Below, one piece after another: positions 30,163-52,817 of a DNA stretch of 64,000 bases. Under the pieces are notes generated by a model that saw nothing but the letters and a program-made list of their open reading frames with translations, did not search any database and had not been told where the DNA came from. Position numbers and translations under genes: made by a program. Source of the DNA: a virus; the IMG/VR virus record IMGVR_UViG_3300049171_000092, positions 1 to 64,000 of that record; one strand, 5' to 3'. How positions within the stretch are numbered: position 1 is the first letter of the stretch; every line of letters begins with the position of its first letter.

Positions 30163-30183
30163 GCCCGGCCCAGAACCAGCGGC
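30163..30183 (-). promoter_or_regulatory. Late-cassette 21-nt motif, copy 1
   Basis: Coding strand GCCGCTGGTTCTGGGCCGGGC, 27 nt before the start at 30135. TAGACT hexamer 8 nt upstream. Confidence 0.6.
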
Positions 30184-30229
30184 TACCCGTCAGTCTAAGG
30201 CGCACAGGGGTACGCCACGTCGCCCCTGC

Positions 30230-30955
30230 TCAACCGTACAATTCGACGATTACTATGCCGTCCCCGCCTTCACCGCCGTCGACGTCGCCGCCGAAGGACA
30301 GGCCGCCGCCCGCGCCCGCGCCCCTGCCGCGCGGTCCGAGCCCGTTCCCCTCGGTGGTGCGGCCCAGTCCGCCCGTGCCCATGAACGAGTCGCCGCCGTG
30401 ACCGGCCATGCCGTAATTGCCGTTGAGGCGGATCGCCGAGCCCGAAGCGCCGCCGCCCGCCCGGAAGTCGCCGCCCGTGCCCGCGTTGGGGCCGGCAATG
30501 CCCTGCGCCGTGCTCGGCGTGGCCCCGCTCGGCATGTTTGACGTGCCGCCCGCTCCGCCCGGCGCGAAGACGTGCCCGCCGAACTGGGACGAGCCGCCGT
30601 CGCCGCCGTCGGATCCGGCACCGCCGGCCGAGCCGCCTCGCCCGACGATGATCGTCTCGTTCGTGCCGAGCGCCGACACCTGGATCAGGCCCTCGCCGTA
30701 GGCGCCGCCCGCTCCCCCAGGCCGCGCGATCGCCTCGTTCGTGTCGGCGTTCGCGCCCGCCGAACCGCCGCCCGCTCCCTGCACGCGGACCCTGACCCGC
30801 GCGAGCCACGGGTACGACGCCTTGCGGAACGTGAACGTGCCGGGGTCGGCGTACTCGAGGACCTGCCGCAGGCCCATCGTGCCCGGCTTCAGGCACAACT
30901 CCCCGTTGTCCGGGTCGACTACGAAAAAATCATCGCATACGCAAGCCCTTGCCAC
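30230..30955 (-). CDS. Glycine-rich minor tail protein
   Basis: Long GGxGG tracts. N-terminus CVCDD. GTG start. Confidence 0.7.
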   Translation of the reverse strand: MARACVCDDFFVVDPDNGELCLKPGTMGLRQVLEYADPGTFTFRKASYPWLARVRVRVQGAGGGSAGANADTNEAIARPGGAGGAYGEGLIQVSALGTNETIIVGRGGSAGGAGSDGGDGGSSQFGGHVFAPGGAGGTSNMPSGATPSTAQGIAGPNAGTGGDFRAGGGASGSAIRLNGNYGMAGHGGDSFMGTGGLGRTTEGNGLGPRGRGAGAGGGLSFGGDVDGGEGGDGIVIVELYG

Positions 30956-30981
30956 GGTTATCCCCAGATGTCCGAAATGAC

Positions 30982-31002
30982 GCCCGGCCCAAAACCAGCG
31001 GC
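30982..31002 (-). promoter_or_regulatory. Late-cassette motif, copy 2
   Basis: GCCGCTGGTTTTGGGCCGGGC, 26 nt before the start at 30955. TAACCT upstream. Confidence 0.6.
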
Positions 31003-31012
31003 TACGCAGAGG

Positions 31013-31537
31013 TTAGACCGCCGGGGCGCCGCTCGCCGTCATGTGCACCGGCACCCCGGCGCCGGACGGGACCAGCGGCAGCAGGCCCAGGCCGAGCAGC
31101 GCCTGAGTGCGCCACACCCGCACGACGGCCTGCGTCGTGGTGACCTGCTCCAGCGACACCGTCACCGTGCGGTCGTCGGCCGGCGTCGTGTCGACGGCGA
31201 GTGCTGTGATGACGGGCGGCGCGGTGAACGCCTTGGGGAACACCCACGTTGCGCGGCTGTCGGCGGCCGTAGTGACGACCGCCGCGGCAGGCGGTGCGCC
31301 AGGCGGGCCGGGAGGGCCCGACTCGCCGGGCGCACCGGGCGCACCGGGCGCACCTGGCGATCCGGGCTCGCCGGGCGGCCCCGGGCGGCCGGGCTCGCCC
31401 TGCGGACCGCGCTCTCCTTGCTCGCCGCGCGGGCCGGGCCTGCGCGAGCCTGCACGCGCCGCCCGGCCGACCTCGCGCATCACGCCACCCATCGGGTCAC
31501 CCGGCAGCCGCCGGGCCGCTGATCCTCGTACCGCCAT
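31013..31537 (-). CDS. Collagen-like (G-X-Y repeat) minor tail protein
   Basis: [46 protein letters not shown]. Confidence 0.75.
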
Positions 31538-31541
31538 GCCG

Positions 31542-32567
31542 TCAGTCCTCCACGTCGCTCGTGACCGGCGCCAGTTGTACCTTCACGCTCTCGCCGTCGC
31601 CGTCTTCTTCCACCTTCAGTCCCGCGATCTTGAGCCGCTGTGTCAGCGGCCGGCACGTCACTTGCGTGGCCACGTCGACGCACCAGCCCGGCACGAGCGT
31701 CGCCACGTCGACCGCGGCTTCGGGCGACAAGGTCACCTCGTCCGACGACAGGAACACCGGCACCGGGTAGTTCGCCGCCCGGCGCGAGCGGGCCGCCGCC
31801 AGCGCCGACGCGTCCGTCTTGACCGACGTCTGCTCGACGCTGACCTCGAGCAGCCCGTAATAGCCATCAGCGCCGCCCGAGACGCCCTTCACGCCGCTGG
31901 CCTGGTCGCCGTGCACGATGACCCGCGTCGCGAGCTGCGAACCGTCCTCCGCCACGATTAGACCCTCAGGAAGATCCGCGTCGGTCAGCGTGCCCACCGA
32001 CGCCGACCAGTCCTCGGGCATGAGCACGATCGTGTTGCCGACGGCCGTGTAGTCCAGCCCGGTGTCCGCGAGGTCGCGCAAGTGGTCGCCGGTCTGCCCG
32101 TCATCGCGCGTATAGGCGCGTCCGCCCTCGACGCCGGTCGGGCCGAGGATCCGCACCTCGTGCCCGGGGTCGTCGGGGGCGAAGCCGTCCTCGATGAGCC
32201 ATGCCCCGATGTCCGCGAGGTCGGCGCCGGCGAACGTGACCGACTCGTGCGGCACGCGCCGGTCGAGCCAGACGAGAATGTCGCTCGCCCACAGCTCGAC
32301 CTTCCCCAAGGACCACTCGGCCTGGATGATGGGCCCCTCCCACACCGTCACCCCGTCGCGGGCAATGACGAGCTTGTGCCGCCAGGTGCGCACCCGGCCG
32401 AGCTGGGCGCAGCAGTCCCCGTCGGGGTTGATGATGACGTGAGCCGTCGACACGTCATCGAGGACGCGGGACCACTCCACGGAAACGAGGACGTCGGCGT
32501 GGGAGACGACCGCGCCGTCCCGGTCGACGATCAGGGCCGAGTGAACCCCGCAGCCGGCTGACGACAT
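31542..32567 (-). CDS. Minor tail protein (Tal-position)
   Basis: Trimmed to ATG 32565-32567. Follows the Dit-position gene. Confidence 0.6.
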
Positions 32568-32590
32568 GGGCACCCCTGTGTGAGGAGGTA

Positions 32591-32611
32591 GCCCGGCCCA
32601 CAACCAGCGGC
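32591..32611 (-). promoter_or_regulatory. Late-cassette motif, copy 3
   Basis: GCCGCTGGTTGTGGGCCGGGC, 23 nt before the start at 32567. TAACCT upstream. Confidence 0.6.
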
Positions 32612-32647
32612 ACCATCAGGTTAGGCGGGATGGATCCCCTGGGGTGG

Positions 32648-33991: not shown

Positions 33992-34015
33992 GAGCGAACC
34001 CCCAGAACGCAGAAC

Positions 34016-34036
34016 GCCCGGCCCACAACCAGCAGC
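34016..34036 (-). promoter_or_regulatory. Late-cassette motif, copy 4 (variant)
   Basis: GCTGCTGGTTGTGGGCCGGGC. Confidence 0.5.
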
Positions 34037-34217
34037 GTGTGAAAAGTCTGTCACACCTCACGGAGCATGCTCTGAACTGGCACTTTGCCGGTAAGTACTG
34101 CAACTTTCAGGGTCGTTGGAACGTCGTTATACGTGAGCGGGCCGCCCCGGTGTTGCGACCACCGGAACGGCCCTGACCGACACCCCTTGTGGCTCTTGGA
34201 CCTGAAGGAGTACGGCT

Positions 34218-35324: not shown

Positions 35325-35330
35325 CACGAT

Positions 35331-35367
35331 GCGCAGGCCCTCGCTCCCCAGTGACAGGGGCCCGCGC
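35331..35367. terminator. Hairpin between convergent genes
   Basis: GCGCAGGCCC ... GGGCCCGCGC (one mismatch). Confidence 0.4.
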
Positions 35368-35369
35368 GG

Positions 35370-38612: not shown

Positions 38613-38640
38613 CGGGCACCCTCACGTGATCGTGAATGGT

Positions 38641-38662
38641 GCCCGGCCCAGAACCAGACGGC
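38641..38662 (-). promoter_or_regulatory. Late-cassette motif, copy 5 (1-nt insertion)
   Basis: GCCGTCTGGTTCTGGGCCGGGC, 28 nt before the start at 38612. 9-bp stem CCGGGCACC/GGTGCCCGG spans 38612-38646. Confidence 0.55.
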
Positions 38663-38698
38663 GTCGGCAGCACGCGCGGCGCTGCCTCGAATCTCAGG

Positions 38699-39061
38699 TT
38701 AGCCGCTGCGACGGCTTGCGAGCTGTGCGTCTTCCGCCGCGACCTGCGCCATCAGTGCCCGTGCCTGGCCCGCGTCGACGCGTGCTGCGGCCGGCCGGCC
38801 GCGAGCTCCTCGAGCTCGTTCACCGCGAGGCGGCGCGTACAGCTTCGCCCGGATGCGCTGCCGCTCGGCGTCGTCTTCCGCCGCCATGTCCATCGCGGCC
38901 TCGGCAGCGGCGAGCATCGTTTTCAGCGGCCACGCGTGCGGGTCGGTCCCATTGAGGGCGAGTTGCCCGAGCCACGAGTCCCAGCTGGCTTCGATGCTTT
39001 CGCAGATCCGGAAGACGACATAGTAGGGCGCGAGCCGCCTCCGAAGAGCTCGACGACCCAC
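38699..39061 (-). CDS. -1 frame extension ORF of the tail assembly chaperone (gpT-like part)
   Basis: Open -1 frame overlaps the last ~140 nt of the chaperone gene and has no plausible own start or SD. Confidence 0.4.
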   Translation of the reverse strand: MGRRALRRRLAPYYVVFRICESIEASWDSWLGQLALNGTDPHAWPLKTMLAAAEAAMDMAAEDDAERQRIRAKLYAPPRGERARGARGRPAAARVDAGQARALMAQVAAEDAQLASRRSG

Positions 39062-39462
39062 TCGAGGAGCTCGACGACGACGCGTGTCGGCAGCCGGAAG
39101 TGGTCGACGACGCGCGCTCCGTCGTACTGCTCGGCGTACTCCTCGGCCTCGTCGAAGTCGTGGAACGACTCGAGGACGTCGCCGGCACCGTTGACGACGT
39201 CGAGGCGGGTGAAGAGGGCGGCGCTCTCGGGGAGCATCTGCCGCGCGAGGAAGAGGCGCAGCGAGCGCATGGTGCGGCGGATGTCCTTCGGGTCTGCCTC
39301 GGCGAGGTTCTCGAGGTCGACGCCCTTCGCGTGCTGGGCTTCGCGGAGTTCGGCGTAGGCGTCCATGAACTCGTCGCCCATGACCTCGGGCTCGAACTTC
39401 AGCTCTGTGCCGCCGATGTCGGCGATGTGGGGTTCGGTGTTGAGGGCGAAGGATTTACGCAC
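38923..39462 (-). CDS. Tail assembly chaperone (gpG-like)
   Basis: Position immediately upstream of the tape measure. Acidic, 179 aa. GTG 39460-39462. Confidence 0.6.
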   Translation of the reverse strand: MRKSFALNTEPHIADIGGTELKFEPEVMGDEFMDAYAELREAQHAKGVDLENLAEADPKDIRRTMRSLRLFLARQMLPESAALFTRLDVVNGAGDVLESFHDFDEAEEYAEQYDGARVVDHFRLPTRVVVELLEWVVELFGGGSRPTMSSSGSAKASKPAGTRGSGNSPSMGPTRTRGR

Positions 39463-39488
39463 AGGTCTTTCCCTGTCTCCCGTTCCTC

Positions 39489-39510
39489 GCCCGGCCCACA
39501 ACCAGTCGGC
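39489..39510 (-). promoter_or_regulatory. Late-cassette motif, copy 6 (1-nt insertion)
   Basis: GCCGACTGGTTGTGGGCCGGGC, 26 nt before the start at 39462. Confidence 0.55.
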
Positions 39511-39537
39511 GCACTACGAAGGGTACTGGCCGTGCCG

Positions 39538-40505: not shown

Positions 40506-41315
40506 TTACGGCCAGACCTGGGTGCGGGACCGCCGGTGGTCTGGGCTGTAGACGCGGCTGGGGGACGTGAGGCGGTGGGGGTTGACCGTGGTGAGCCAGA
40601 GGTCGACGAGGGGTAGACCGGTGCGCATCTCGGTGTAGAGCAGCGTCGGGTCGGCGAACTCCTGGTCGACGCCCTGCCGCGACAGACGGGTGACGTTCGC
40701 GGGCAGCTTGCAGCCGCACGCACCACCTCCGTTGCAGCCTTTGAGTAGGTGGCAGACGAGTTCGCTGTAGGCGGCGATCGCGGCGTCGTCGAGAGGCAAG
40801 CCGATCCGGTAGTGCACAGCGAACGTGCCCGGTTCACCGGCGGGCGCGGCGAGGTCCTGGCAGTCGGGCCAGCAGCCGCCGTCGGTACGCACCAGCAGCC
40901 CGGGTGAGTCGACCCGGTACGCCGACGTCGGCAGCGTCACGCCGTCGACTTCAACGCCGAGGATGTCGTAGACGGGGCCTTCGAGGCGGACTTCGCACAG
41001 CTCGGTGCAGGAGCAATCCGTGGCGCAGCCGCACACGGAGGCGTTGCGCCACTGCCCGTCGCGGCCGATGTACGGGATCCACGGGGAGCCGCCAGTCCAG
41101 GAAGAAGCGAGCGGCAGGGAGTCGAGGCAGCTGCGCCGGCAGGGCCGCACCGTGTACGGGCAGGACGGGCCCCAGCGTCGGCCGGACAGGTTGAACAGGA
41201 TGGTGGTGGCGACCCGCTTCCAGCGTTCCAGGACCGCCTCGTCGGCGTCGTCGGCGGCGGGGCAGCACGACAAATCGAGTGGCCAGGGCTCACACAACGG
41301 CCGTTGCAGGGCCAC
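40506..41315 (-). CDS. Head-to-tail adaptor-like protein
   Basis: CEPWPLDLSCC...LSGRRWG..C..TVRPCRR.C N-terminal pattern. GTG start with a GAGGAG SD. Confidence 0.6.
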   Translation of the reverse strand: MALQRPLCEPWPLDLSCCPAADDADEAVLERWKRVATTILFNLSGRRWGPSCPYTVRPCRRSCLDSLPLASSWTGGSPWIPYIGRDGQWRNASVCGCATDCSCTELCEVRLEGPVYDILGVEVDGVTLPTSAYRVDSPGLLVRTDGGCWPDCQDLAAPAGEPGTFAVHYRIGLPLDDAAIAAYSELVCHLLKGCNGGGACGCKLPANVTRLSRQGVDQEFADPTLLYTEMRTGLPLVDLWLTTVNPHRLTSPSRVYSPDHRRSRTQVWP

Positions 41316-42100: not shown

Positions 42101-42124
42101 GCCGAAACCTCCTACTAGCAGGAG

Positions 42125-42145
42125 GCCCGGCCCAAAACCAGCGGC
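42125..42145 (-). promoter_or_regulatory. Late-cassette motif, copy 7
   Basis: GCCGCTGGTTTTGGGCCGGGC, 24 nt before the start at 42100. TAAACT upstream. CCTCCT/AGGAGG stem at 42108-42125. Confidence 0.6.
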
Positions 42146-42200
42146 TCAATATGCGAGTTTAGCTGCGGCGCTGTGCTGCACGGCTGCCGCTTTCGGCTGC

Positions 42201-42500: not shown

Positions 42501-42512
42501 GATGGGCCCGCC

Positions 42513-43370: not shown

Positions 43371-43398
43371 GGGAGCACTCCTCAGGAGGTGAGAGAGT

Positions 43399-43419
43399 GC
43401 CCGGCCCAAAACCAGCGGC
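43399..43419 (-). promoter_or_regulatory. Late-cassette motif, copy 8
   Basis: GCCGCTGGTTTTGGGCCGGGC, 28 nt before the start at 43370. TAAACT upstream. Confidence 0.6.
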
Positions 43420-43502
43420 TCATTGGTGAGTTTATCGATCCGGGGTCGCCGTGAAGGTGGCCCCGGTGCCGCGCCCGGCGGACGACCGGGCGCGGCGTCG
43501 AG

Positions 43503-46500
43503 TCAGCCGTTCGCCGACGACGGCGGCAGGAAGCAGGGGGCGACGCGCCAGCCGTCCGGCGGGGCGTCCTGGCGCTGCCCGTCCTCGTCGAGGTAGTAGA
43601 TCGAGTCGTCGCAGCACACCATCCGCGTCCACGACCGCGTCTCCGGGATCACCTGGTAGAAGACCTTCAGGTGCACCATGAGGCCGGCGCCGCCGCCCAC
43701 GGTCTCCTCGACGTCGAGGTAGAGCGCGTTACGGCCGGCCTTGGCGCCGGGGATGGCGTCCGGCCCGAAGGTGTAAGTCGTGCCGTTGTGCGTGGCCGAC
43801 GCCGGGAGGGTTTGCCAGGCGCCGTCGTTGAGCCTGAAGGCCCTTCCGGCCTGGTCCGCGTTGAAAACCGTCGCCTGCACCCGAATGCTGCTGGGATCAG
43901 CGTTGTCCGGCAGATCGAAGAACGCCCGCGGGTACCAGTGGACGTTGAGCAACGACGGGCCCTCGTTGGGCCGTGGCGGGCTCGACTGCGCCGACCGGCC
44001 ATCCGGGTGCGGGCTCACCCACCACGCCGGCCGCGCCGTGTCGGAGTCCCGCACCGTCCAGTCAGCGGAGAACTGGAACTGGTACATGTCGTACCAGACG
44101 GGGCTCGCGGCGTTGAGGTCCGTGGTCCACTTCCACACCGGGTCGACAGTGTTGTCGTTGCGATGCGCTTCGTTGGAGATGAACTCGCGGGTCTGCGTCG
44201 GGATCTGCTGGATGCACACCTGCACGGGCTGGCAGCAGTTGTCGCCGCACGTGAGCGTCGCCCGAGCAGGGATCGCCGAGCCGGTGACCGCGTCGACGAC
44301 CTTGATGCGGCCCTGGCAGTCGGCGAGCTTGACGGCCGGCCACGGCACGGTGTCGACGACGACGCCGCAGAACCGCTCGAAGTGCGGCGCGGGCGGGTCG
44401 CCGAAACCGGTGGTCGTCAGCGTCAGGCGCACCGGCTTGGAGAACTCGATCCGGTACCGGTCGCCGTTGTCGACGTTGAGCTTCGTCGGGTCGTCGTTGC
44501 GCGCGACGCCGTTACCGGCGAGCGCCCGCAGCGTCACCACCACGCCGTTGAACGTCGCCGTGCCGACGTAGCCGGCGGGCGACTGCGTCGGGTGGATCGG
44601 GATGGCCGGGTTGAACGCGGCCCAGTTGATGTCTCCGCCGAGGTCGCCGCTGGTGAACCCGAACGCCGAGATGGCGCCCGTGCTCGACTCGTAGGTGCCT
44701 TCCCAGGCGGTGACCCTGTCGCCGTAGCCGTAGCGGGGGTTCGTCGCCGTAGCGAGCATGCAGTCCGGGTAGGAGGCGCTGTTCAGGTCGAACCCGACCG
44801 CACCGTCTGGCATGGAGTAGGTGCACTCTTCCACTACCGACAGGTCGCACGGCGGCTCCTGCTGGCACTGGCCGACGTCGCCGACCGGCACGTATGGGGT
44901 GACGCCGTCCATCAGCGTGTCCGTGACGCTGGTGACCTGCCCGTCGCAGTCCCGGCAGATCCGGCGCAGGAACTGCCCGCCCGGAGCCACGCTGAAAGCG
45001 CCGACGTAGTACGTGAAGAACGTCGTGCACGCCGCGATCCTGCTGCCCTGGCCGGGCTGGGTCGTGAGGCTCGTGACCGGGCCCGGGGTGCGGAACCGGG
45101 CCATGTGCTCGGGCTGCGGGTCCGTCACGTAAGTGCAGCTGTCCGTGGTGCCGTCCCAGGTGCGGGTGAGCACACCCGTCGCCGGGTCGTAGGTGTAGTT
45201 CTCCGGCAGGCTCAGGACCTCCAGCCCGACGGGGAGCTGCGCCTGGTTGCTCGGCGGGTTCGTCGGGCTGCCGATCAGATAGACGGAGAACTCCACGACG
45301 GACGGCAGCGAGAACGTCCACCGTGTCGGCGCATCAGCCAGGTTGGGGAACGAGTGCAGCCCCCAGAACGCGATGCCGTCGCTGTTGGCGATGCGCGCGG
45401 GCATCGCCGTTCCCGTGCTGAGCGGGCCGGGGTTGCGTGCAGTGTAGGCGACACCGTTCGCCAGGGTGCCTTGCGCGGCGGTGCCCGTGATGGTGGCAGG
45501 GCTGCCCGAGTCGCACAGGATCAGCGTCTCGCAGTCCGCGCAGGGCGAGGAGGTGGAGGGCGGCTCGGGGCAGGTGCCCGCCTCGCCCTGCACCTCGTAC
45601 AGGGTGACGCCGTCGAGGGTGGTGTCCGCCGTCGTCACGCCGCCGGCGTCCCGGCACAGAGTGCGTAGGAACGGGACCGCGACGTCGGCCGCCACGGTGA
45701 TCTGCCCGTACTGGCTGGTCTGCCCGGCCGTCTGCGCGCCGGTGAGAACGGGCGCGAACATGGTCTGCGCGGTCAGGGCGTCGGTCTTGAAGACGGACTC
45801 CCCGACCTGCGTGGCGGAAGCGGTCGGGGAGATCGTCCGCGTGGCCGCGTTCCAGGTGTGCTGCACGGTGTTGATGCTGTCGAGGTACCAGCCCGCGGGG
45901 ATCCGCAGCGGCGTGGCGGTGGGCCCGGAGAACCTGACGGTGTAGCGGATGGACACCGGCCGGTCGAAGTCGAACCGCTCGGGCGCGTTGTCGGCGGCGA
46001 GGTACCAGCCGTCTCCGGAGGCCATGTCCAGGCCGCGCTTCATCCAGCGCACGCCGTTGGCGGCGAGGGTTTGCCACTGCTCGTCCGGTGTGCCGAACGA
46101 CGGGAGGACGGCCGGCACCTGGTGCTGGACGTCGCAGAGCTGGACGATCTCGCAGTCCGTACCGGGCGGGGTTTCGCAGGCGCCCGTGGTGCCGAGCACC
46201 TGGTAGGCGGTGGTCCCGTCGAGGGTGGTGTCCGTGACGGTCGTCTCGCCGGTGGCACAGTCGCGGCACAGGGTCCGCAGGAACGGCACCGGGCCGGGGT
46301 TGAGGACGAACCCGCCGACACGGGTGGCACCGACCTGGCCGCAGATCGGCACTGCCTGCGGGGTGGTGATGACCATCGACGAGACCGGTGCCGCGGTGAG
46401 GAACGTCGCGGACGTGGCGACCGCCGGCGTGCGCAGCGACGGGCAGTCGTCGCTGGTGCTGCTCAGGGTTCGGGTGGCCGCGTCGTAGCTGTACCCCTCC

Positions 46501-47267
46501 GGCAGGTGCAGCGGGATGACGTCGGTCGAGAACGTCACCGATCCGGGCCCGACCTGCACCACACTGAACTGGACGGTGGAGGGCTGCCCGAATTCCCACG
46601 TCTGCGGTCCGGCGCTGTCGCGCGGGTAGGTCTGGATGCCGTACCAGTAGCCGGTTCCGTCGGCCGAGGCGACGTTGGCCTCCAGCTCCATCGGGCCGTT
46701 GTTACCGTCCCCGGTCACGGACCAGGAGACCCCGCTGGATGCGGTCCCCGATCCCGCGTTCTCCGCCGGGGCGATGACCCCCTGGGGGCCGGTAGTGGCG
46801 GACAGGACGTCGCAGAGTTGCAACGTCTCGCAGCCGGCGCACTGCGGCGGGGTGCAGACGCCGACGGTGCCCGTGACGGTGTACGGGGTGCCGTCGAGGG
46901 TGAGGTCGGTGTGCCCGTCCGGCTCGCCGGTCGCGCAGTCGTAGGAGTAGCGGCGCAGAAACCGGACGGGCTCGCCGCCACCGGCCGGGGCGTCGCACAG
47001 CAGCTCCGTGTGGCTGTCGCAGCCGCCCTCGGTGGGGCACTGCGTCAGCTCACCCTGCACCGTGTACGCCTCGCCCGTGACGGGGTCGACGGTGCGCGTC
47101 GCGACGCGCTGGCCCGTGGAGGCGTCGTAGACCGGCTCGACGGCCACCAGGGCGGCGACGGTGCCGTCTGGCAGCACGTCGCACATGACGAGCGTTTCGA
47201 CGTCGAGCCGCTGCGAGGCGGCGGGGTTGTTGAAAACGACGGGCTGGCCGCAGCCGCATCCGCTCAC
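43503..47267 (-). CDS. Giant Cys-rich repeat protein (1254 aa), probable adhesin/receptor-binding virion protein
   Basis: GTG 47265-47267 in a GTGA overlap. N-terminus VSGCGCG. Four FLR...LDG.PY...G..G.C modules alternate with three ~200-aa divergent repeats. Confidence 0.75.
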   Translation of the reverse strand: MSGCGCGQPVVFNNPAASQRLDVETLVMCDVLPDGTVAALVAVEPVYDASTGQRVATRTVDPVTGEAYTVQGELTQCPTEGGCDSHTELLCDAPAGGGEPVRFLRRYSYDCATGEPDGHTDLTLDGTPYTVTGTVGVCTPPQCAGCETLQLCDVLSATTGPQGVIAPAENAGSGTASSGVSWSVTGDGNNGPMELEANVASADGTGYWYGIQTYPRDSAGPQTWEFGQPSTVQFSVVQVGPGSVTFSTDVIPLHLPEGYSYDAATRTLSSTSDDCPSLRTPAVATSATFLTAAPVSSMVITTPQAVPICGQVGATRVGGFVLNPGPVPFLRTLCRDCATGETTVTDTTLDGTTAYQVLGTTGACETPPGTDCEIVQLCDVQHQVPAVLPSFGTPDEQWQTLAANGVRWMKRGLDMASGDGWYLAADNAPERFDFDRPVSIRYTVRFSGPTATPLRIPAGWYLDSINTVQHTWNAATRTISPTASATQVGESVFKTDALTAQTMFAPVLTGAQTAGQTSQYGQITVAADVAVPFLRTLCRDAGGVTTADTTLDGVTLYEVQGEAGTCPEPPSTSSPCADCETLILCDSGSPATITGTAAQGTLANGVAYTARNPGPLSTGTAMPARIANSDGIAFWGLHSFPNLADAPTRWTFSLPSVVEFSVYLIGSPTNPPSNQAQLPVGLEVLSLPENYTYDPATGVLTRTWDGTTDSCTYVTDPQPEHMARFRTPGPVTSLTTQPGQGSRIAACTTFFTYYVGAFSVAPGGQFLRRICRDCDGQVTSVTDTLMDGVTPYVPVGDVGQCQQEPPCDLSVVEECTYSMPDGAVGFDLNSASYPDCMLATATNPRYGYGDRVTAWEGTYESSTGAISAFGFTSGDLGGDINWAAFNPAIPIHPTQSPAGYVGTATFNGVVVTLRALAGNGVARNDDPTKLNVDNGDRYRIEFSKPVRLTLTTTGFGDPPAPHFERFCGVVVDTVPWPAVKLADCQGRIKVVDAVTGSAIPARATLTCGDNCCQPVQVCIQQIPTQTREFISNEAHRNDNTVDPVWKWTTDLNAASPVWYDMYQFQFSADWTVRDSDTARPAWWVSPHPDGRSAQSSPPRPNEGPSLLNVHWYPRAFFDLPDNADPSSIRVQATVFNADQAGRAFRLNDGAWQTLPASATHNGTTYTFGPDAIPGAKAGRNALYLDVEETVGGGAGLMVHLKVFYQVIPETRSWTRMVCCDDSIYYLDEDGQRQDAPPDGWRVAPCFLPPSSANG

Positions 47268-49813
47268 GTCGTGACTCCTGTCGTGAAGTTGATCGTTACC
47301 GTTCCGGTCTGGGCTGCGATCCGCAGCGGACCGACGAGCCTGGCGTCGATGTCTTTGCTGATCGCCCACCGGGCTGTCTCGCCGTCGTGCAGGGTCGAGG
47401 TGCCGTCGGCGGTGGTCACCTGGCCCGTGCCGGTGCGCGCGGTCGCCTCGACGGTGCGCAGCAGCGGCCAGGCGTCGGCGTCCCACGTCTCGCCGGGGTC
47501 GAGCTGCACGCGCCGCGCCTGCACCACGACGGCGGGTTCGGCGTCGCCGGTGTTCGTGTCGGCGTCGCACGGGATCGGTGCGATCGGCGTGTAGGGGGCG
47601 GAGAGGTCGGGCGTGTACGTGCCGAGCGGTGTGAGCGTGCCGGAGGTGTCGGCGAGGAGCAGCTCGGCGTAGCACGTATCGGCGGTGCCGTCGCCGTCGG
47701 TGTCGTCGCAGCGTTCGGCGCGGATGATGCTCGAGCCGGCCGGCGTGCTGCTCGCCGGACAGAGGCCGACGGTGCCGGCGGGCGTGTACGGGGTGACGCC
47801 GTCGAGAGCGAGATCCGTGACGTCGAGGACGGCGCCGGTGCAGGTGAACGCGACGCGGCGTAGGAACGGCGTCACCGTGCCGTCTATGGCCGTGTCGCAG
47901 AGCGTCATGACGGCCGTGTCGCAGGGCTCGGCCGGTGGTGCGTCACCGTCGGCGTCGCAGTCGACGGGCGAGACTGGCGCGTAGGCCGCGGACAGGTCGG
48001 GCAGGTAGTCGCCGAGTGGGCTGATCAAGCCGTCGCAGTCGACGGCGAGGAGCGCGACGTAGTCCGTATCGGCGACGCCGTCGCCGTCGGTGTCGTCGCA
48101 GCGGCAGACGCGGAGCACGTTCGTCGTCGTGCACGGCTGGGGCGGGACGGGTGGGGATCCGGTGCCGCTGCCGGGTACGCACTGCCGGACGTCGCCGCCG
48201 ACGGTGTACGGGGCGCCGTCGAGCGTCGTGTCCGTGATCTCGGTGACCTGGCCGGTCTCGCAGTCGGTGACGATCGTCCGTAGGAACTGGACGGCGCAGC
48301 CGTCGAGGGTGGCGCCGATGTCGACTTGATCGACGGTCCATGCCTTCGGCCCGAGGTGGTGCGTCTCGAGGATGAGGATGACGTACAGGTCGCCGGAGGT
48401 GAGATCGGCGGCCGTGATCGGGGCGATCGCGTTCAGTGTCTGCTGGTAGCCGACGGGCGGATTCGAGAGGACGCCTTCGCCGAGGAGTCCGGTCGTGCCC
48501 CGGTAGATGCCCATGCGGCCGACGTAGGCGATGCCGTCCGTCGGCCCGTTCAGGGTGACCCGCATGGAGACGGAGAGGCTGCCTTCGCCGCCCTCGCAGG
48601 GCTGGCCGGTGATCCGGCCGACAGCGACGCGGTAGACCTGCGAGCCGTCGCCGGCGGAGGCGTCGGCGTCTGCGGGGAACGTGAACGGTCCGCCTGCCCA
48701 CAGGTCGGCGAACGAGCCGGGCAGCGTCGCGAACGGGGTGGTGAGGCCGACGTCTTGGATCGTCGCGTCGCTGATCGTCAGCGGTATAGGAGTCGCCGTG
48801 AGCGTGGTGTCGCACAGGACAACGGCTGTCGTGTCGCGGCACGGCTGCGCGTCGCATGAGGTGATCGTGCCGGTCGGCACGTAGGCGGCGCCGTCGAGCG
48901 TGTAGTCCGAGTGCCCGACGATCGCACCCGTTTCGTTGCGCCGGTAGTCGCGCAGGAACGGCGTCACGGTGCCGTCGGCGGCGACTTCACACAAGACCGC
49001 GAGGTCCTGCTCGGGCTGGTCTATGCCGGTGGGGCAGGTCGTGATCTCGCCCTGCGGCGTGTACGGCTGGCCGGTGGTGGCGTCGACGAGCTGAACGCCG
49101 CCGACGCTGCCGTCGGGGTTGTAGGTGTACTGCACGAGGACAAGGCCGAGGACGTCGCCGGTCGCCGGGTCCGTGTCGCAGAACGTGCCGGTGGTCGAGA
49201 TGTTCCGCGGCGTACCGCAGGCGGTGACTCCGGTGGGGGGCTGCCCGGCGGAGTAGGCGCCCGTCGCAAGGTTGAGCCAGCCTTCCTGCCGGATCACGCC
49301 GTCGCAGTCGCGGGTGACGAGGACGGCGATGGGTGTGCCGTCGGCGAGGCACAGGCCGAGCGTCGCCAGGGGTGCGCGCTGCTCGAGGCAGTCGGAGCCG
49401 CCGTCGCAGGATCGTACTTGGCCGATGACGACGTGCGGGGTCTCGCCGTCGATCTCGACGTCGACGTAGGCGGCGGTGCCGTTGGAGAGGAAGGTGAACT
49501 TCCGCAGGAACGGGCGGCCGGAGTCGTCGCAGAGCATCTCGGTGTGGCACTGCATGGTGCCGTGCTCGCAGTCGACCGGCGAGATGGGCGTGTACGGCTC
49601 CGAGGGGTCGCCCTGGTAGGTGAGGACGAGCTGGCTGGTGCCGTCCTGCTCGATGCACCAGAGTTCGCTGTAGGTGGTGTCGGGCAGGCCGTCACCGGTC
49701 GTGTCGTCGCAGCGCAGGACGCAGGTGGTGGTGACGCACGTGGGGGGGCATTCGCATTCGCCTCCGCCGCCTCCCCCGGCGCCGCAGGTGCAGCCGCTGT
49801 AGGAGATGGCCAT
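47264..49813 (-). CDS. Giant Cys-rich repeat protein (849 aa) with DxDxDG-type loops
   Basis: N-terminus MAISYSGCTCGAGGGGGGECEC. Three RCDDT(D/T)GDG.(A/P)DT repeats. Four FLR...LDG.PY modules. Confidence 0.75.
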   Translation of the reverse strand: MAISYSGCTCGAGGGGGGECECPPTCVTTTCVLRCDDTTGDGLPDTTYSELWCIEQDGTSQLVLTYQGDPSEPYTPISPVDCEHGTMQCHTEMLCDDSGRPFLRKFTFLSNGTAAYVDVEIDGETPHVVIGQVRSCDGGSDCLEQRAPLATLGLCLADGTPIAVLVTRDCDGVIRQEGWLNLATGAYSAGQPPTGVTACGTPRNISTTGTFCDTDPATGDVLGLVLVQYTYNPDGSVGGVQLVDATTGQPYTPQGEITTCPTGIDQPEQDLAVLCEVAADGTVTPFLRDYRRNETGAIVGHSDYTLDGAAYVPTGTITSCDAQPCRDTTAVVLCDTTLTATPIPLTISDATIQDVGLTTPFATLPGSFADLWAGGPFTFPADADASAGDGSQVYRVAVGRITGQPCEGGEGSLSVSMRVTLNGPTDGIAYVGRMGIYRGTTGLLGEGVLSNPPVGYQQTLNAIAPITAADLTSGDLYVILILETHHLGPKAWTVDQVDIGATLDGCAVQFLRTIVTDCETGQVTEITDTTLDGAPYTVGGDVRQCVPGSGTGSPPVPPQPCTTTNVLRVCRCDDTDGDGVADTDYVALLAVDCDGLISPLGDYLPDLSAAYAPVSPVDCDADGDAPPAEPCDTAVMTLCDTAIDGTVTPFLRRVAFTCTGAVLDVTDLALDGVTPYTPAGTVGLCPASSTPAGSSIIRAERCDDTDGDGTADTCYAELLLADTSGTLTPLGTYTPDLSAPYTPIAPIPCDADTNTGDAEPAVVVQARRVQLDPGETWDADAWPLLRTVEATARTGTGQVTTADGTSTLHDGETARWAISKDIDARLVGPLRIAAQTGTVTINFTTGVTT

Positions 49814-50205
49814 CAGCTATCCCCCTCGGGGTGGGCCTGGCGGCGGTGGGTGTTCCGGCCGCGTTCGGTCGCGAAGGTGCGCGGGCACCGATCGCAGGCG
49901 TAGGCGTCGTCGGCGTCGTCGCTGGGGGCGTCCTCCAGCGGCGCGAAGTCCGAACCCGGCCCGGTCTCGCTGAAGGCCTCGGGGGTGGCGACACCCAGGA
50001 GTTCCTGGTCAGCGTCCTCTTCGGGTGAGCGGTAGCGGTGGCCGTCGACGAGGGAGCCGATCAGCAGCTCTTCCGGCATGTGCGTGAACAGGTCCGGGGG
50101 GACGGCGAACTCGCTGTGGGAGCAGGTTTCTACCTGCGGGGTCTGGGCGGTCGCCCACCGGGCGAACGCTGCACGCCGCTCGGGCGCGGGCCGCACTTTG
50201 ATCAT
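49813..50205 (-). CDS. Acidic protein with a C-terminal classical C2H2 zinc finger
   Basis: YACDRCPRTFATERGRNTHRRQAH fits Y-x-C-x2-C-x3-F-x8-H-x4-H. ATG 50203-50205; GTG 50217 is the alternative. Confidence 0.6.
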   Translation of the reverse strand: MIKVRPAPERRAAFARWATAQTPQVETCSHSEFAVPPDLFTHMPEELLIGSLVDGHRYRSPEEDADQELLGVATPEAFSETGPGSDFAPLEDAPSDDADDAYACDRCPRTFATERGRNTHRRQAHPEGDS

Positions 50206-50207
50206 CG

Positions 50208-51044
50208 TCAGCAGCACGTCGAGATCCTCACTGCCGCCGCCTCACAGCACGCCACCTCGATCACGGAAGTGCGCTCGGCGAGGACGTACCGGTCATTCAG
50301 GCGGGTGTCGATGCTCCCGGCCTCGGTGGGCGGGATGATGTCGAGCGGTCCGCGCCGCACCCGCACGGGCCCGGTGATGTAGAGCCACGCTTCGCCGTCG
50401 GGTGCCTGCGTGCAGGTCGGCCCGCCGACGTTCGTGGCGTAGCCGGCGCCCATCACCACGCCGTTACCCATGAGCGTTTCGGGGCATTGGGTGTCGCGGG
50501 TGCGGGTGACGACGTTGCAGCAGCCCAGCAGCGCTGCCGCGCCGGCAGGGATGTGCAGGATGCCTTCGCCGCCGTAGTGCTCGGCCAGCCAGCCCTCCAG
50601 CGCGGCGATGCCCTGCGCGGCCGGCAACGCCCCCGACGCGGGGGTGAGGTCGTTGTCGGCGGCCATCGTGCACAGGGCGTTCATCATGAACCAGGATTCG
50701 AGGGCGCGCTGCTCGCCCATGCGGAGAGTTTCCGCAGCGTGCTCGACGGCCTCGTCGTAGGTCATGCCGAACGTGCTGCACGTGGACCCTGCGTATGTAG
50801 TCACCGGGTCGAACTCGCACACCCCGGGCCGGTCGAAGATCTTCGATGCCGGGTTGGGCACGGTGGGGGGCGGGCAGTCCCGCTCCCACGTGTGGGTCTC
50901 CGCGCACGACAGCGGCACGAACTGGGTGCCGTTCATCTCGTGCAGATCGGTGACGTCTACGACCTCTACGCACCCGCCGAGGAGGCCGTAGGGGCTCGGG
51001 TTGCCGCGGATGGGGGCTACGGTCTTGCGCATCCCTCCCGCCAT
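50208..51044 (-). CDS. Virion protein, possibly a second HK97-fold capsid-like protein
   Basis: ATG 51042-51044. ...EQRALESWF...GILHIPAGAAALL...LMGNGVVMGAGY...AWLYITGPVRVRRGP resembles the C-terminal half of HK97-type capsid proteins. Confidence 0.45.
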   Translation of the reverse strand: MAGGMRKTVAPIRGNPSPYGLLGGCVEVVDVTDLHEMNGTQFVPLSCAETHTWERDCPPPTVPNPASKIFDRPGVCEFDPVTTYAGSTCSTFGMTYDEAVEHAAETLRMGEQRALESWFMMNALCTMAADNDLTPASGALPAAQGIAALEGWLAEHYGGEGILHIPAGAAALLGCCNVVTRTRDTQCPETLMGNGVVMGAGYATNVGGPTCTQAPDGEAWLYITGPVRVRRGPLDIIPPTEAGSIDTRLNDRYVLAERTSVIEVACCEAAAVRISTCC

Positions 51045-51070
51045 CTGCCTCACGCCCTCTCGTGGTTCGG

Positions 51071-51106
51071 GCGCAGCCCCGGCCGGGCAGATGGCCGAGG
51101 CTGCGC
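51071..51106 (-). terminator. Hairpin after the major capsid gene
   Basis: GCGCAGCC(c)CGGCC ... GGCCG(a)GGCTGCGC. Confidence 0.55.
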
Positions 51107-51120
51107 GCAAAGGGGGTGGG

Positions 51121-52767
51121 TTAGGCGGTCGGGCAGGCGACGGCGGCGCGCGGGCCGACGGAGCCGTCGGCGCAGACCGGGATGGTGATGGCGCGGGCCT
51201 GCGGGCCGCGGTAGATGAGGGCGTTGCAGGACTCGAAGAACAGGGCGGTCATGTCGTTGGTGCGCAGCAGGGTGCTGTCGTGGACGACGCCGAGGTTGAT
51301 CTCGGGGCCGCGGCCCATCTGGAAGGCGCCGGCCGGGTAGAGCAGGGCCTGCACGGTGGCGGGCCAGGCGGTGGCGGGGGTGGTGTTGCCGATCTGGGTG
51401 GGGACGGCCGGGGGCAGGCCCTTGACCCACTGGACGCGGACGCCGAGGTCGGCGAAGGCCTGCTCGACGCAGTTCTGGTTGAGGTCGCAGACGTTGACGC
51501 CGTCACGGCGGGCGATGTCGGCGAGGAACATGTTGCGCGCCCAGTACGGCAGGACCAGCTCGAGGCCGATCCGCTCGCAGAGGTTGAACCGTTCGGTCAT
51601 GTCGGCGATCTGCAGGGCGAGCGCCCCGTACACCGCCGAGAAGGACGCGAAGCTGGTGGCGGTGGTGACGGGCGTGGCCCGGGTGAGGGCCTGCTGGTAC
51701 ATGGCGGCCTTGAGACGCATCTCGTAGGCAACCATGGCGCGGCGGATGTAGAAGGTGGTCAGTTCCGGGAAGAACCGCTGGGAGAGGATGCCGGCCTGGA
51801 TGCAGGCGCCGTAGGCGGTGCAGCGGACCTCGACCGGGTCCACACAGGGGATCTTGAAGCAGGGCTTGGTGGGGTCGCCGTCGACCGCGCTGATGTCGTC
51901 GGCTTCGGTCCAGACCCACGACATGGCGGTGACGTCCAGCTCGGGTGTCATGTAGTAGCGCAGCCCGCCCCGGGACAGGTTGAGCTCGGGCAGGTCCCAC
52001 AGGTTGTCCGGGCAGGAGATCTCGGTGAAGTCGTACACCGTCTCTGAGGGGGCGCACCAGCCGCCCGAGGCGACGAGGTCACCGCCCTTCAGGCGCCGCT
52101 GGTCGGCGGCCTTCAGGACCTTGGTGGTGCCCTCCTCTGGGGAGCCGGCGTCGTTGATGACGAGGTCCTGCGGGAAGGGCAGCTGGTACGAGGCGGCGAT
52201 GGCCTTGCCGCCGTTGGTGACGAGCTGCGCGACCTTGGTGACGGACTCGGTCAGCCCGTCCATGTCCAGCGGTGCGCCGAGGCTGGCGCCGGGGACCTCG
52301 GCGGAGGCGACGATCGTGACGGCCGGGGTGCCGGACTGCGGCATCGGCTGCCGCGGCTGCCGCTCCCGCACGGTGGCGAGGCTGATGATCGGGCGCCGCA
52401 CGACGGCGGACGACGCGGCGACCTCCTCGACGACCGGCTCCTCCTCGGCGGCGGGCTCGGCCGGCTCGTCCGTCTCGGCGGCCGGGTGGTCGTCGGTGTC
52501 GGTGGCGGCTTCCTCGCCGAGGACCTGGGCGGCGAGTTCGTCGAGTTCAGCGACGGCAGCCTGCGCGGCTTCGACGCGCTGGGTCTGCTCGGCGCGCAGC
52601 GCCTCGATTCCGGTGGCCAGCTCCCGCAGGACGGGCAGGTCTTCGGTGGTGAGGTTGGGGTCCTGACGCCGGGCGTTGAACGCCTCGACGGCGGCGGCGA
52701 GGGTGGCGTCGAGGTCCTCGCTGCTGAGGCTGGTGACGTCGTCGGGAAGCTGGAAGGGCTCGGACAT
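51121..52767 (-). CDS. Major capsid protein with N-terminal scaffold-like (coiled-coil/acidic) domain
   Basis: 548 aa. Coiled-coil plus acidic linker, then ASGGWCAPSETVYDF and an HK97-like C-terminal region. AGGAG SD. Flanked by the 21-nt motif and a hairpin. Confidence 0.78.
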   Translation of the reverse strand: MSEPFQLPDDVTSLSSEDLDATLAAAVEAFNARRQDPNLTTEDLPVLRELATGIEALRAEQTQRVEAAQAAVAELDELAAQVLGEEAATDTDDHPAAETDEPAEPAAEEEPVVEEVAASSAVVRRPIISLATVRERQPRQPMPQSGTPAVTIVASAEVPGASLGAPLDMDGLTESVTKVAQLVTNGGKAIAASYQLPFPQDLVINDAGSPEEGTTKVLKAADQRRLKGGDLVASGGWCAPSETVYDFTEISCPDNLWDLPELNLSRGGLRYYMTPELDVTAMSWVWTEADDISAVDGDPTKPCFKIPCVDPVEVRCTAYGACIQAGILSQRFFPELTTFYIRRAMVAYEMRLKAAMYQQALTRATPVTTATSFASFSAVYGALALQIADMTERFNLCERIGLELVLPYWARNMFLADIARRDGVNVCDLNQNCVEQAFADLGVRVQWVKGLPPAVPTQIGNTTPATAWPATVQALLYPAGAFQMGRGPEINLGVVHDSTLLRTNDMTALFFESCNALIYRGPQARAITIPVCADGSVGPRAAVACPTA

Positions 52768-52796
52768 TGCCGTTGACTCCTGGTGTGATCACAGGA

Positions 52797-52817
52797 GCCC
52801 GGCCCAAAACCAGCGGC
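52797..52817 (-). promoter_or_regulatory. Late-cassette motif, copy 9
   Basis: GCCGCTGGTTTTGGGCCGGGC, 29 nt before the start at 52767. CTCCTG/CAGGAG stem at 52777-52797. Confidence 0.6.

Follow-up and report, generated by a model that had tools for sequence, protein, structure and literature searches.

The 21-nt motif that precedes the virion genes of a Streptomyces (pro)phage encodes, judging from the covariation of its bases, a conserved RNA stem-loop, named here HP1. Nine copies occur in the window (the whole 64-kb stretch of DNA that was analysed), each probably near the 5′ start of a separately promoted virion-gene message, since HP1 lies just downstream of -10-type elements.

The HP1 stem-loop and the genes behind it

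A search allowing up to three mismatches retrieved nine motif matches in the window, all on the minus strand, whereas 0.04 copies would be expected by chance (0/100 shuffles reach nine). In ascending coordinate, they precede fibre-like gene 2 (30163–30183, start codon at 30135), the genes for the Gly-rich protein (30982–31002, start 30955), the Tal-position protein (32591–32611, start 32567) and the Dit-position protein (34016–34036, a U3 variant, start 33991), the tape measure gene (38641–38662, start 38612), the tail assembly chaperone-position gene (39489–39510, start 39462), the major tail gene (42125–42145, start 42100), fibre-like gene 1 (43399–43419, start 43370) and the major capsid gene (52797–52817, start 52767). 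The corresponding gaps to the start codon are 27, 26, 23, 24, 28, 26, 24, 28 and 29 nt. The tape measure and chaperone-position copies are 22-nt matches. All nine copies were also found with a covariance model, at 24–36 bits (35.6 for the capsid copy, 24.8 and 24.4 for the chaperone-position and tape measure variants), against 17 bits for the next best match. Neither this search nor a PWM scan detected any weaker copy elsewhere in the 64 kb, so that the early/accessory part of the window, including the early and integrase region (1–26 kb), is empty of the motif. The preliminary description, which had reported nine co-oriented copies 23–29 nt before virion-gene starts, two of them with a 1-nt insertion, and none in the early part, thus holds on all these points.

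The major capsid and major tail proteins were identified through PHROG matches (phrog_777 and phrog_792, respectively), and the chaperone-position gene matches a PHROG family of unknown function. Homology to annotated phages provided the names of the tape measure, Dit-position, Tal-position and Gly-rich proteins and of both fibre-like paralogues. An integrase gene at 18105–19388 indicates that the window is a temperate element. The nine HP1 cassettes split its virion-gene block into nine units, which are probably separate transcription units.

HP1 comprises seven base pairs (1-21, 2-20, 3-19, 5-18, 7-17, 8-16 and 9-15), two single-base bulges, G4 and U6, and a 5-nt loop, within a total length of 21–22 nt; the 1-nt insertions of the longer variants map to the G4 bulge. 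Among 42 distinct 21-mers, standard pairs are found in 97.6% of the cells, whereas slid pairing registers are just 16–52% paired. Both sides vary at four of the seven pairs: 1-21 (GC/GU/AU), 2-20 (CG/UA/UG), 3-19 (CG/UG/UA/AU) and 5-18 (CG/AU/GC). A19 is always accompanied by U3 (11/11), A20 by U2 (8/8) and U18 by A5 (3/3). Altogether, 24 cells are altered on both sides, compared with 6.2 in shuffles (0/500 reach 24), the independent compensatory events being fewer than the cells counted because the instances are related by descent. Pairs 1-21, 2-20 and 3-19 include 47 G-U/U-G instances versus a single A-C/C-A, a bias that points to pairing in the sense-strand RNA and not to a palindromic DNA site. 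While the stem covaries freely, the bulges and the G7G8/C16C17 core are invariant, even where the phage proteins are only about 45–50% identical.

The hairpin is weak when considered on its own: its predicted stability of about -5 kcal/mol is no better than that of shuffles, RNAfold favours other registers, and forcing HP1 into whole-leader folds has a mean cost of about 3.8 kcal/mol. That the motif is itself a hairpin had been missed in the preliminary description.

Promoter-like hexamers and the masked Shine-Dalgarno sequence

A TANNNT hexamer ends 6–11 nt before HP1 in 165 of 206 related copies, versus 0–7 in control windows, and about 87% of the 206 have a -10-type hexamer 6–14 nt upstream. 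Position 5 of the hexamer is C in 166/180 cases, giving a TAnnCT consensus, and no -35 element was detected at the HP1-linked hexamers of the related copies examined. In outlier copies, the hexamer lies farther upstream, as far as about 35 nt, and an additional hairpin separates it from HP1. In the window, where all these elements lie on the minus strand, TANNNT is found 6–10 nt upstream of six copies: TAGACT 8 nt before HP1 of fibre-like gene 2 (30192–30197), TAACCT 7 nt before the Gly-rich copy (31010–31015) and 6 nt before the Tal-position copy (32618–32623), TACCCT 9 nt before the chaperone-position copy (39520–39525), and TAAACT 10 nt before the major tail copy (42156–42161) and 9 nt before that of fibre-like gene 1 (43429–43434). 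Five of these had been listed previously; the chaperone-position copy at 39489 is a sixth, and the Dit-position copy at 34016 has CAGACT 8 nt upstream (34045–34050). As for the more remote hexamers, TAAGAT does lie 22 nt before the capsid copy (52840–52845), which also has CACAAT at 7 nt (52825–52830), but the tape measure TAACCT (38696–38701) lies at 33 nt, and not 36, with an extra hairpin between it and HP1. The late promoter/leader reading proposed earlier is thus supported, and sharpened by the addition of a transcribed, covarying hairpin.

A second hairpin, HP2, abuts HP1. Its sequence is variable and it contains the Shine-Dalgarno (SD) sequence, whose G-run lies at +37 to +41, the start codon being mostly 27 nt past HP1. 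In the window, on the minus strand, HP2 is seen before fibre-like gene 2 as a CAAGG.../...CUUG hairpin extending to the start codon (30138–30162), and in a form holding the SD before the Tal-position gene (UACC.UCC...GGGGUG, 32570–32590), the tape measure gene (a strong hairpin with SD GAGGGUG, leader z = -4.9, 38615–38640), the major tail gene (CCUCCU/AGGAGG, 42103–42124), fibre-like gene 1 (ACUC.UCUC...GAGGAGUG, 43373–43398) and the major capsid gene (UCCUG...CAGGA, followed by a spacer to the ATG, 52770–52796). Over the 206 leaders, the leader hairpin has a mean z of -1.42 (p about 5e-22). In 83 of 91 non-redundant leaders, half or more of the SD core is paired, with partners at positions 21–29, and the SD pairing probability is 0.75, versus 0.65 with the spacer shuffled (p = 6e-6). 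The earlier suggestion that bases 3′ of the motif pair with the SD is therefore retained, both in the window and statistically, but the 3′ end of the motif does not generally belong to the SD helix, which mostly starts just after it. HP2 begins at position 22 in 42/96 leaders, and a selected overlap of HP1 with the SD hairpin was not supported in these 96 leaders.

Distribution of HP1

HP1 is conserved in dozens of related phages and matches no catalogued RNA family; no Rfam family corresponds to it and no published description was found in the literature searched. The 17-nt motif core is present in at least 116 IMG/VR stretches, and related copies precede the MCP, MTP, chaperone, TMP, Dit, Tal, fibre and Gly-rich protein genes. 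When loci were found by MTP protein homology alone, HP1 was upstream in 52/52 testable cases; tandem double copies occur in 11 of these 52 MTP leaders, and also in TMP leaders. The cassette precedes homologous virion genes in phages and prophages of Streptomyces and Kitasatospora. The temperate phage TurkishDelight has 10 copies, none of them around its annotated repressor and Cro genes. In the cluster BG/Woodruffvirus phages TP1604, phiSAJS1 and Mischief19, HP1 is found only before MCP and MTP; Geonosis, a relative of the cluster BG phages, is predicted to be virulent.

Among 185,579 species, with one genome per species, the full 21-mer is restricted to Streptomyces and Kitasatospora, where about 30 of roughly 39 copies precede recognisable virion-gene homologues, most with a -10 hexamer. 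Core-only matches in other phyla have neither the virion-gene context nor the hexamer.

Possible functions and known systems

On balance, and with modest confidence, HP1 is best read as a leader 'operator' for one conserved trans-acting partner setting late mRNA stability and/or translation. Since the stem covaries whereas the bulges and the G7G8/C16C17 core are fixed across divergent phages, HP1 is most likely a recognition site. The putative partner may be either a protein encoded by the phage or some part of the host machinery (ribosome, RNase or RNA polymerase). Once bound, it would determine how stable the mRNA is and/or how often translation starts at the neighbouring masked ribosome-binding site, which could lead to coordinated high expression of the virion proteins. 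No candidate partner emerged among the non-structural proteins common to the four sequenced relatives. A WhiB-like factor, the only such protein common to all four, would have sigma, not RNA, as its target, and the p134 zinc-finger tail does not track the motif. In the MS2 and PP7 coat-protein operators, Mu Com-mom and the BglG/LicT RAT, a known protein acts at a single site in the genome or operon. HP1 resembles them as a hairpin of about 20 nt with conserved bulge and loop, weak alone, next to or overlapping a structure masking an expression signal; it differs in its nine or more sites, its putative partner and the lack of support for a selected overlap with the SD hairpin.

A passive role is possible but unlikely, namely that HP1 is a 5′-terminal stabiliser against RNase E/RNase J 5′-end-dependent decay, with no need for a specific partner. 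Stem-loops at the 5′ end stabilise the ompA, ermC and T7 gene 10 mRNAs. In T7, the conserved gene 10 stem-loop begins at +1 of late class III transcripts, and its sequence belongs to the promoter of the phage's own RNA polymerase. HP1, which is also conserved and about 21 nt long, likewise forms a hairpin at the predicted 5′ end of late mRNAs (T7's is found on the most highly expressed ones, ahead of a strong ribosome-binding site); it would begin 0–5 nt from the predicted TSS, placed from the -10 hexamers only, in most copies, and in cluster BG it is limited to the genes of the two most abundant virion proteins, MCP and MTP. However, the -10 hexamer of its putative promoter is of the host type and variably spaced, and no RNA polymerase gene is annotated in the four sequenced relatives. 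Passive stabilisation is also at odds with the weak predicted stability, and would explain neither the invariance of G4, U6, G7G8/C16C17 and most loop bases beside a covarying stem, nor the copies that are not 5′-terminal (TMP, MCP, second of tandem pairs).

A similarly small chance is given to a nut-/put-like element, in which RNA polymerase that has only just left each late promoter, modified by the nascent hairpin acting by itself or together with a small phage protein and Nus factors, would read through inter-cassette terminators. The phages with lambda nut boxB or HK022 put carry just two such sites each, and these stand in no set relation to a ribosome-binding site. Like them, HP1 is a small conserved nascent-RNA hairpin soon after a (predicted) phage promoter, with terminator-like hairpins downstream. 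Each copy is linked to its own promoter-like hexamer, a strong hairpin occurs in the 65 nt upstream of about half of them (-18 kcal/mol or lower in 48%, versus 27% in shuffles), copies may be tandem in MTP and TMP leaders, and invariance across divergent phages would be expected if the target belonged to the host, as RNA polymerase does. On the other hand, antitermination requires neither a narrowly set distance from HP1 to the SD and start codon nor an HP1 abutting the SD hairpin, a processive mechanism would have no need to reload at nine sites within 23 kb, and there is no boxA or boxA-like conserved flank, nor was an N-like protein identified in the HP1 phages. The promoter link at every copy would suit an effect on RNA polymerase as well as it suits the leader operator.

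Cleavage of long late transcripts at or near HP1 by an RNase, yielding monocistronic mRNAs with defined 5′ ends, is improbable. The copies do lie between the genes of a block that shares one orientation, and a hairpin with single-stranded flanks could conceivably direct cleavage by RNase E, RNase III or RNase P. Nothing points specifically to this possibility, raised in the preliminary description: about 87% of copies have a suitably spaced promoter-like hexamer, which makes primary 5′ ends more likely than processed ones, a classical RNase III site would need a longer helix, and no conserved single-stranded AU-rich cleavage site exists outside the loop.

The stoperator-like alternative, also raised there, is very improbable. 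It would make the duplex 21-bp site, at +1 to +21, the target of a phage repressor or late regulator that blocks or activates late promoters. Stoperators are DNA sites for the immunity repressor of temperate phages, distributed genome-wide including the early promoter; consensus sequences are available for L5, Cluster A mycobacteriophages and Streptomyces phage R4 (PMC10276819, supplement). The motif shares with them many asymmetric, co-oriented, intergenic and highly conserved short copies in an actinophage; it overlaps the predicted TSS, and the window is temperate. Yet it is limited to late leaders, without a copy in the immunity/early regions of the window and TurkishDelight, occurs in cluster BG despite the predicted virulence of Geonosis, lies at varying distances from the -10 hexamer and is unlike the stoperators of R4, L5, Zemlya and phiHau3 in sequence; its sense-strand Watson-Crick and wobble covariation is that of an RNA hairpin. 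A host REP-like or chance repeat, suggested by nothing beyond the GC-rich nature of the motif, can practically be dismissed given the chance expectation in the window and a taxonomically limited 21-mer mostly found before virion genes with a -10 hexamer, both features lacking in core-only matches.

The SAS/ESAS elements of Cluster K mycobacteriophages provide another comparison. SAS is a short asymmetric repeat (13 bp) with 11–19 copies in each genome, all pointing the same way and located in the larger gaps between genes, shortly before start codons; the subclusters share it, the host lacks it, and it has no known partner (Pope et al. 2011, PMC3203893). It includes the SD, is separated from the start codon by 3–7 nt and is associated with non-structural genes, and the ESAS repeats have no RNA pairing support (PMC3203893). 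HP1 is similarly multi-copy, co-oriented, intergenic and upstream of start codons. Unlike SAS, it is 21 nt long, lies 23–29 nt from the start, excludes the SD and marks virion genes; it follows a -10 hexamer and shows clear RNA covariation.

Distribution of HP1 in the window and in related phages

The 21–22-nt motif HP1 was recovered with the pattern GCCGCTGGTTNTGGGCCGGGC, allowing up to three mismatches, at nine sites of the window. All of them are on the minus strand and fall where the preliminary description had placed them. The same search gave 0.04 sites in dinucleotide-shuffled sequences, and a chance repeat was thus rejected. The distance between each copy and the start codon that follows is indeed 23–29 nt. 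The early/accessory part had been described as devoid of copies, and this also holds: scanning the whole window with a PWM and searching it with a covariance model both returned exactly nine copies, with none of intermediate quality, and no HP1 was detected at 1–29 kb or at 53–64 kb.

The window has a G+C content of about 70%, and its minus-strand block between 60 and 27 kb forms the virion and lysis module of a siphovirus. This block encodes a terminase, a portal, a MuF-protease fusion, the major capsid protein (MCP, phrog_777), two very large Cys-rich proteins, the major tail protein (MTP, phrog_792), an adaptor, a chaperone, the tape measure protein (TMP), Dit- and Tal-position proteins, fibre-like proteins and an endolysin. 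Late genes lacking HP1 overlap or abut their upstream neighbours. The nine copies thus occupy the only sizeable intergenic gaps, and split the block into nine units. The other 27 kb encode a tyrosine integrase, a GntR-type regulator, a resolvase, a DnaB-type helicase, nucleases and a WhiB-like protein. The integrase (18105–19388, plus strand), the GntR-family regulator (20847–21344, plus) and the serine resolvase (25398–25985, minus) lie mid-window. Phage genes flank this integrase group on either side, and the window is therefore not a simple attL-to-attR view of a prophage. No tRNA gene was found in the window.

No near-identical sequenced phage was detected at the DNA level by megablast, and relatives were recovered at the protein level only. 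The window capsid is 46–54% identical to those of the temperate phage TurkishDelight, of TP1604/YDN12 (cluster BG, Woodruffvirus), of phiSAJS1 and of Mischief19. HP1 is associated exclusively with virion (late) genes. TurkishDelight has ten copies, each preceding a late gene. The cluster BG/Woodruffvirus phages TP1604, phiSAJS1 and Mischief19 have two copies each, before the MCP and MTP genes only, with a different loop (GCYGCUGG-CGKUA-GGCCGGGY).

On a larger scale, the invariant 17-nt core is present in at least 116 IMG/VR stretches, usually as several co-oriented copies per stretch. Among 206 non-identical instances the flanks vary and the motif is near-invariant except at position 11, a conservation to be read knowing that the search patterns used for collecting the instances fixed much of the motif beforehand. 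The genes located 3' of HP1 are homologous to the same genes of the window: fibre-like (42), chaperone (30), MTP (28), TMP (24), Gly-rich (19), Tal (14), MCP (13), Dit (7) and endolysin (3). A motif-independent sample was obtained by gathering loci through MTP homology (51–98% identity). All 52 such loci with upstream DNA carry HP1, 25–75 nt before the MTP gene, and 11 of them carry it as a tandem double. Tandem pairs, 23–45 nt apart, were observed before TMP or MTP genes in TurkishDelight (locus L239, 22903–22950) and in the related loci L246–L248, L264, L270, L272, L274 and L275, while the window has single copies only.

A covarying hairpin preceded by a −10-type hexamer and followed by a structured ribosome-binding site

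HP1 is a conserved, covarying RNA hairpin whose position is fixed, with a −10-type hexamer on its 5' side and a structured ribosome-binding site on its 3' side. The proposed structure, (((.(.(((.....))))))), yields 97.6% of standard pairs over 42 distinct 21-mers, in which four pairs are altered on both sides. Doubly changed cells amount to 24, as compared with 6.2 in shuffles, and none of 500 shuffles reaches 24. Pairing falls to only 16–52% when the register is slid. The alternative register given by RNAfold (5–19, 6–18 etc.) shows no covariation and contains 14 broken cells, and the bulged register was therefore preferred. The coupled variants can be read directly at the MTP loci: GUCG...GGAC (U2/A20), GCUG...GAGC (U3/A19), GUUG...GAAC (both changes), GUAG...GUAC (A3/U19), ACCG...GGGU (A1/U21), GCCGAUGG...CCUGGC (A5/U18) and ACUGGUGG...CCCGGC (G5/C18). 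In 205 context-filtered instances, A19 occurs with U3 only, A20 with U2 only and U18 with A5 only, and 47 G–U states are observed versus a single A–C/C–A. This wobble asymmetry, together with the bulges, favours pairing in the sense-strand transcript over a symmetric DNA operator. The single-base insertions of the TMP and chaperone copies lie exactly at the G4 bulge. G4, U6, G7, G8, G14, G15, C16 and C17 are invariant in the collected set, of which U6–G8, G14–G15 and C17 were required by the collection pattern. No Rfam covariance model matched over any copy, at thresholds of E = 5 for a 25-kb stretch and E = 10 for one leader. HP1 is a previously uncatalogued structured RNA, whose covariation is unusually clean for its size.

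Upstream of the hairpin, a TANNNT hexamer ends 6–11 nt 5' of HP1 in 165 of the 206 instances, and 6–14 nt in 180, as compared with 0–7 in control windows. It is mostly of the form TAnnCT (TAGACT, TACCCT, TACACT and others) and is a candidate −10 element of a host sigma-70/HrdB-type promoter. Stop codons are out as its source, since TACCCT, TACACT and TATGCT are among the most frequent hexamers. At 16–19 nt further upstream, the HP1 leaders show neither a conserved −35 hexamer nor any TTGACA-like enrichment, and an E. coli-type promoter/terminator scan, uninformative here, returned no promoter site. The few outliers are mainly TMP and MCP copies, whose hexamer lies 22–36 nt upstream and is separated from HP1 by an additional hairpin. 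The 65 nt preceding the hexamer are likewise enriched in strong hairpins, which could be terminators or 3'-end structures belonging to the unit before.

The hexamer is also found on its own. Mischief19 has many sites made of a GC-rich hairpin followed by cgTAGACTgg, 35–50 nt before late genes devoid of HP1, for example upstream of positions 4246, 9272, 18095, 30451, 33795 and 37234; hexamer and HP1 are thus separable modules. Two −10-like sequences without HP1 were observed on the minus strand of the window, TACCAT at about 60740–60790, upstream of a small-terminase-like gene, and TATAGT at about 58760–58800, upstream of the DUF1360 gene located before the portal gene. They are possibly promoters of head-morphogenesis units.

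Downstream, the start codon lies most often 27 nt past HP1, and the Shine–Dalgarno (SD) G-run lies at +37 to +41. The pairing-probability profile delineates a second hairpin, HP2, with a C-rich anti-SD 5' arm (22–29), a loop at about 31–34 and a 3' arm containing the SD. Across 206 leaders, this segment folds better than its dinucleotide-shuffled versions, with a mean z of −1.42. In 83 of 91 non-redundant leaders, half or more of the SD core is paired. The earlier proposal that the bases 3' of the motif pair with the SD was borne out, with an SD pairing probability of 0.75 versus 0.65 when the spacer was shuffled (p = 6e-6). HP2 starts directly after HP1 in 42 of 96 leaders, and at most 3 nt after it in 61 of 96. 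Enforcing HP1 costs about 3.8 kcal/mol. A riboswitch-like mechanism in which HP1 and the SD hairpin compete was considered but is unsupported: the SD helix has an extension of 1.08 into the motif, as compared with 0.97 ± 0.12 for permuted tails. As this extension is no greater than with permuted tails, HP1 and HP2 are described as abutting hairpins. The complete cassette, from hexamer to start codon, reveals start codons and operon boundaries, and thus improves the annotation of these prophages. It is also compact, a promoter-leader module about 75 nt long, and could serve expression engineering in Streptomyces.

Possible partners of HP1 and competing explanations

In the mechanism we favour, the host RNA polymerase would start a few nucleotides before HP1, and a single conserved partner would recognise the hairpin, controlling the fate of the mRNA at its 5' end and ribosome-binding site. 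As to a T7-like promoter for a single-subunit phage RNA polymerase, no RNA polymerase gene was found in the feature tables of TP1604, phiSAJS1 and Mischief19 (first 50 kb each) and of TurkishDelight (complete), nor among the part of the window proteins that was scanned. The stem covaries while the bulge and core are invariant, which argues for a recognition hairpin rather than a generic stabiliser. Moreover, HP1 is constant between phages sharing only about 45–50% protein identity, so that its partner may be highly conserved and perhaps a machine of the host.

Several phage proteins were considered in this context. A WhiB-like transcription factor (7453–7704, minus strand; PF02467, E = 7e-24) is the only non-structural protein common to the window, TurkishDelight, TP1604, phiSAJS1 and Mischief19. 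It might be a helper for the −35-less late promoters. It was rejected as the partner of HP1 itself because it is not an RNA binder and would leave the RNA hairpin unexplained. The 134-residue protein p134 (49813–50217, minus; phrog_30321/17728) ends in a single classical C2H2 zinc finger (YACDRCPRTFATERGRNTHRRQAH), a eukaryote-like element unusual within a phage head-gene cluster. The finger is kept in 15 of 18 complete homologues from related loci. In the BG phages a Lys/Arg-rich basic tail takes its place, and two loci with the standard motif likewise have a basic tail instead. The finger therefore does not track HP1 and was discarded as a partner. Two tandem small paralogues starting with M-x-C-x-C (52896–53159 and 53159–53311, minus; phrog_17988) were also observed, and each of the four sequenced relatives conserves one copy immediately before the capsid cassette. 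They have no Pfam match and gave no family or functional hint.

A bolder version of the mechanism, which we regard as rather doubtful, is that HP1 would be an identity tag of late mRNAs, with a host machine rather than a phage protein as its direct reader. Either the nascent hairpin would reprogram RNA polymerase at every late promoter, in a put-like manner, or HP1 would dock the 30S subunit beside the masked SD, so that virion mRNAs would be selectively transcribed or translated. Such a tag would explain the invariant bulges and core despite the low protein identity and the different Streptomyces hosts. If true, it would have no precedent among actinophages.

The nearest functional analogues of HP1 are the 5' stem-loop leader of T7 gene 10, boxB and put, and protein-binding operator hairpins (MS2, Com-mom and RAT). 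A passive role, with HP1 simply stabilising the 5' end, looks unlikely and fits poorly with the invariant bulge and core. Antitermination of the nut/put type appears improbable to the same degree. No boxA-like conserved flank was seen beside HP1, and N-like proteins are not recognisable by sequence. An RNA-processing signal, also put forward in the preliminary description, is judged very improbable.

A stoperator-like DNA operator is essentially excluded. The compensatory pairs and wobble asymmetry described here speak against it, as do the lack of sites in the immunity region, the carriage of HP1 by BG phages and the unrelated sequence. The convincing copies of TurkishDelight are all in its late region. 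Its one weak match (21.5 bits, GCCGCUGGAGCGUGGCCGGGU, 40805–40825, minus), which falls within an annotated gene, on the opposite strand, and is probably due to chance, is away from the repressor/Cro genes at about 47.1–48.1 kb. Nor is HP1 confined to temperate phages, since TP1604, phiSAJS1 and Mischief19 carry it and their Woodruffvirus relative Geonosis is predicted to be virulent. Published stoperators differ from HP1 in sequence and logic, and the consensus sequences of R4 (TGTGCAAGTGTNGC), L5 (GGTGGCTGTCAAG), Zemlya and phiHau3 bear no relation to the HP1 pattern. A dispersed host repeat of the REP type is essentially excluded as well: in a scan of one genome per species (185,579 species), the full 21-mer matches listed are all from Streptomyces or Kitasatospora, and about 30 of the about 39 full-length copies listed precede recognisable virion-gene homologues, most with the upstream hexamer, while core-only matches in other phyla occur at a chance-level rate, without virion-gene context or hexamer.

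Relation to described systems and neighbouring genes

We rate HP1 as a new structured leader RNA family forming a multi-copy late regulon. No description of it was found by motif-sequence searches, in genome announcements and papers on related phages, or in the literature on BG phages, stoperators and the Start-Associated Sequence (SAS). The closest described phenomenon is the SAS of Cluster K mycobacteriophages, whose function is also unknown (Pope et al. 2011, PMC3203893). The SAS is a 13-bp repeat which contains the SD, lies 3–7 nt before the start codon and precedes non-structural genes. In contrast, HP1 ends 23–29 nt before the start codon of virion genes and is separate from the SD. The two elements thus differ in length, position and gene class, and the SAS shows no RNA pairing. 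Across a widespread group of Streptomyces phages and prophages, HP1 appears as the leader shared by as many as ten virion-gene transcription units. It offers a concrete, testable handle on late-gene expression in actinophages, which is largely unknown.

Some neighbouring genes deserve mention in their own right. The two Cys-rich proteins (43503–47675 and 47264–49813, minus; 1390 and 849 residues, both phrog_18824) contain internal repeats with recurrent 'FLRR...C.DC.TG' and 'TLDG.PY' motifs. Their genes sit between the capsid-accessory and tail genes and are predicted to be co-transcribed with the capsid cassette. The listed start of the 1390-residue ORF falls inside the 849-residue ORF, and its true start is therefore probably further downstream. 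Among sequenced relatives, the only related protein is Mischief19 gp18. A two-gene module is duplicated on the minus strand (29293–30135/28932–29300 and 42513–43370/42201–42500), each module comprising a fibre-like protein, a small Ala/Glu-rich protein and one HP1 cassette. Both fibre-like proteins match the same genes in phiSAJS1 and Mischief19. Lastly, a 174-residue ORF with a collagen-like Gly-X-Y tract (31013–31537, minus) is coupled to the Tal-position gene.
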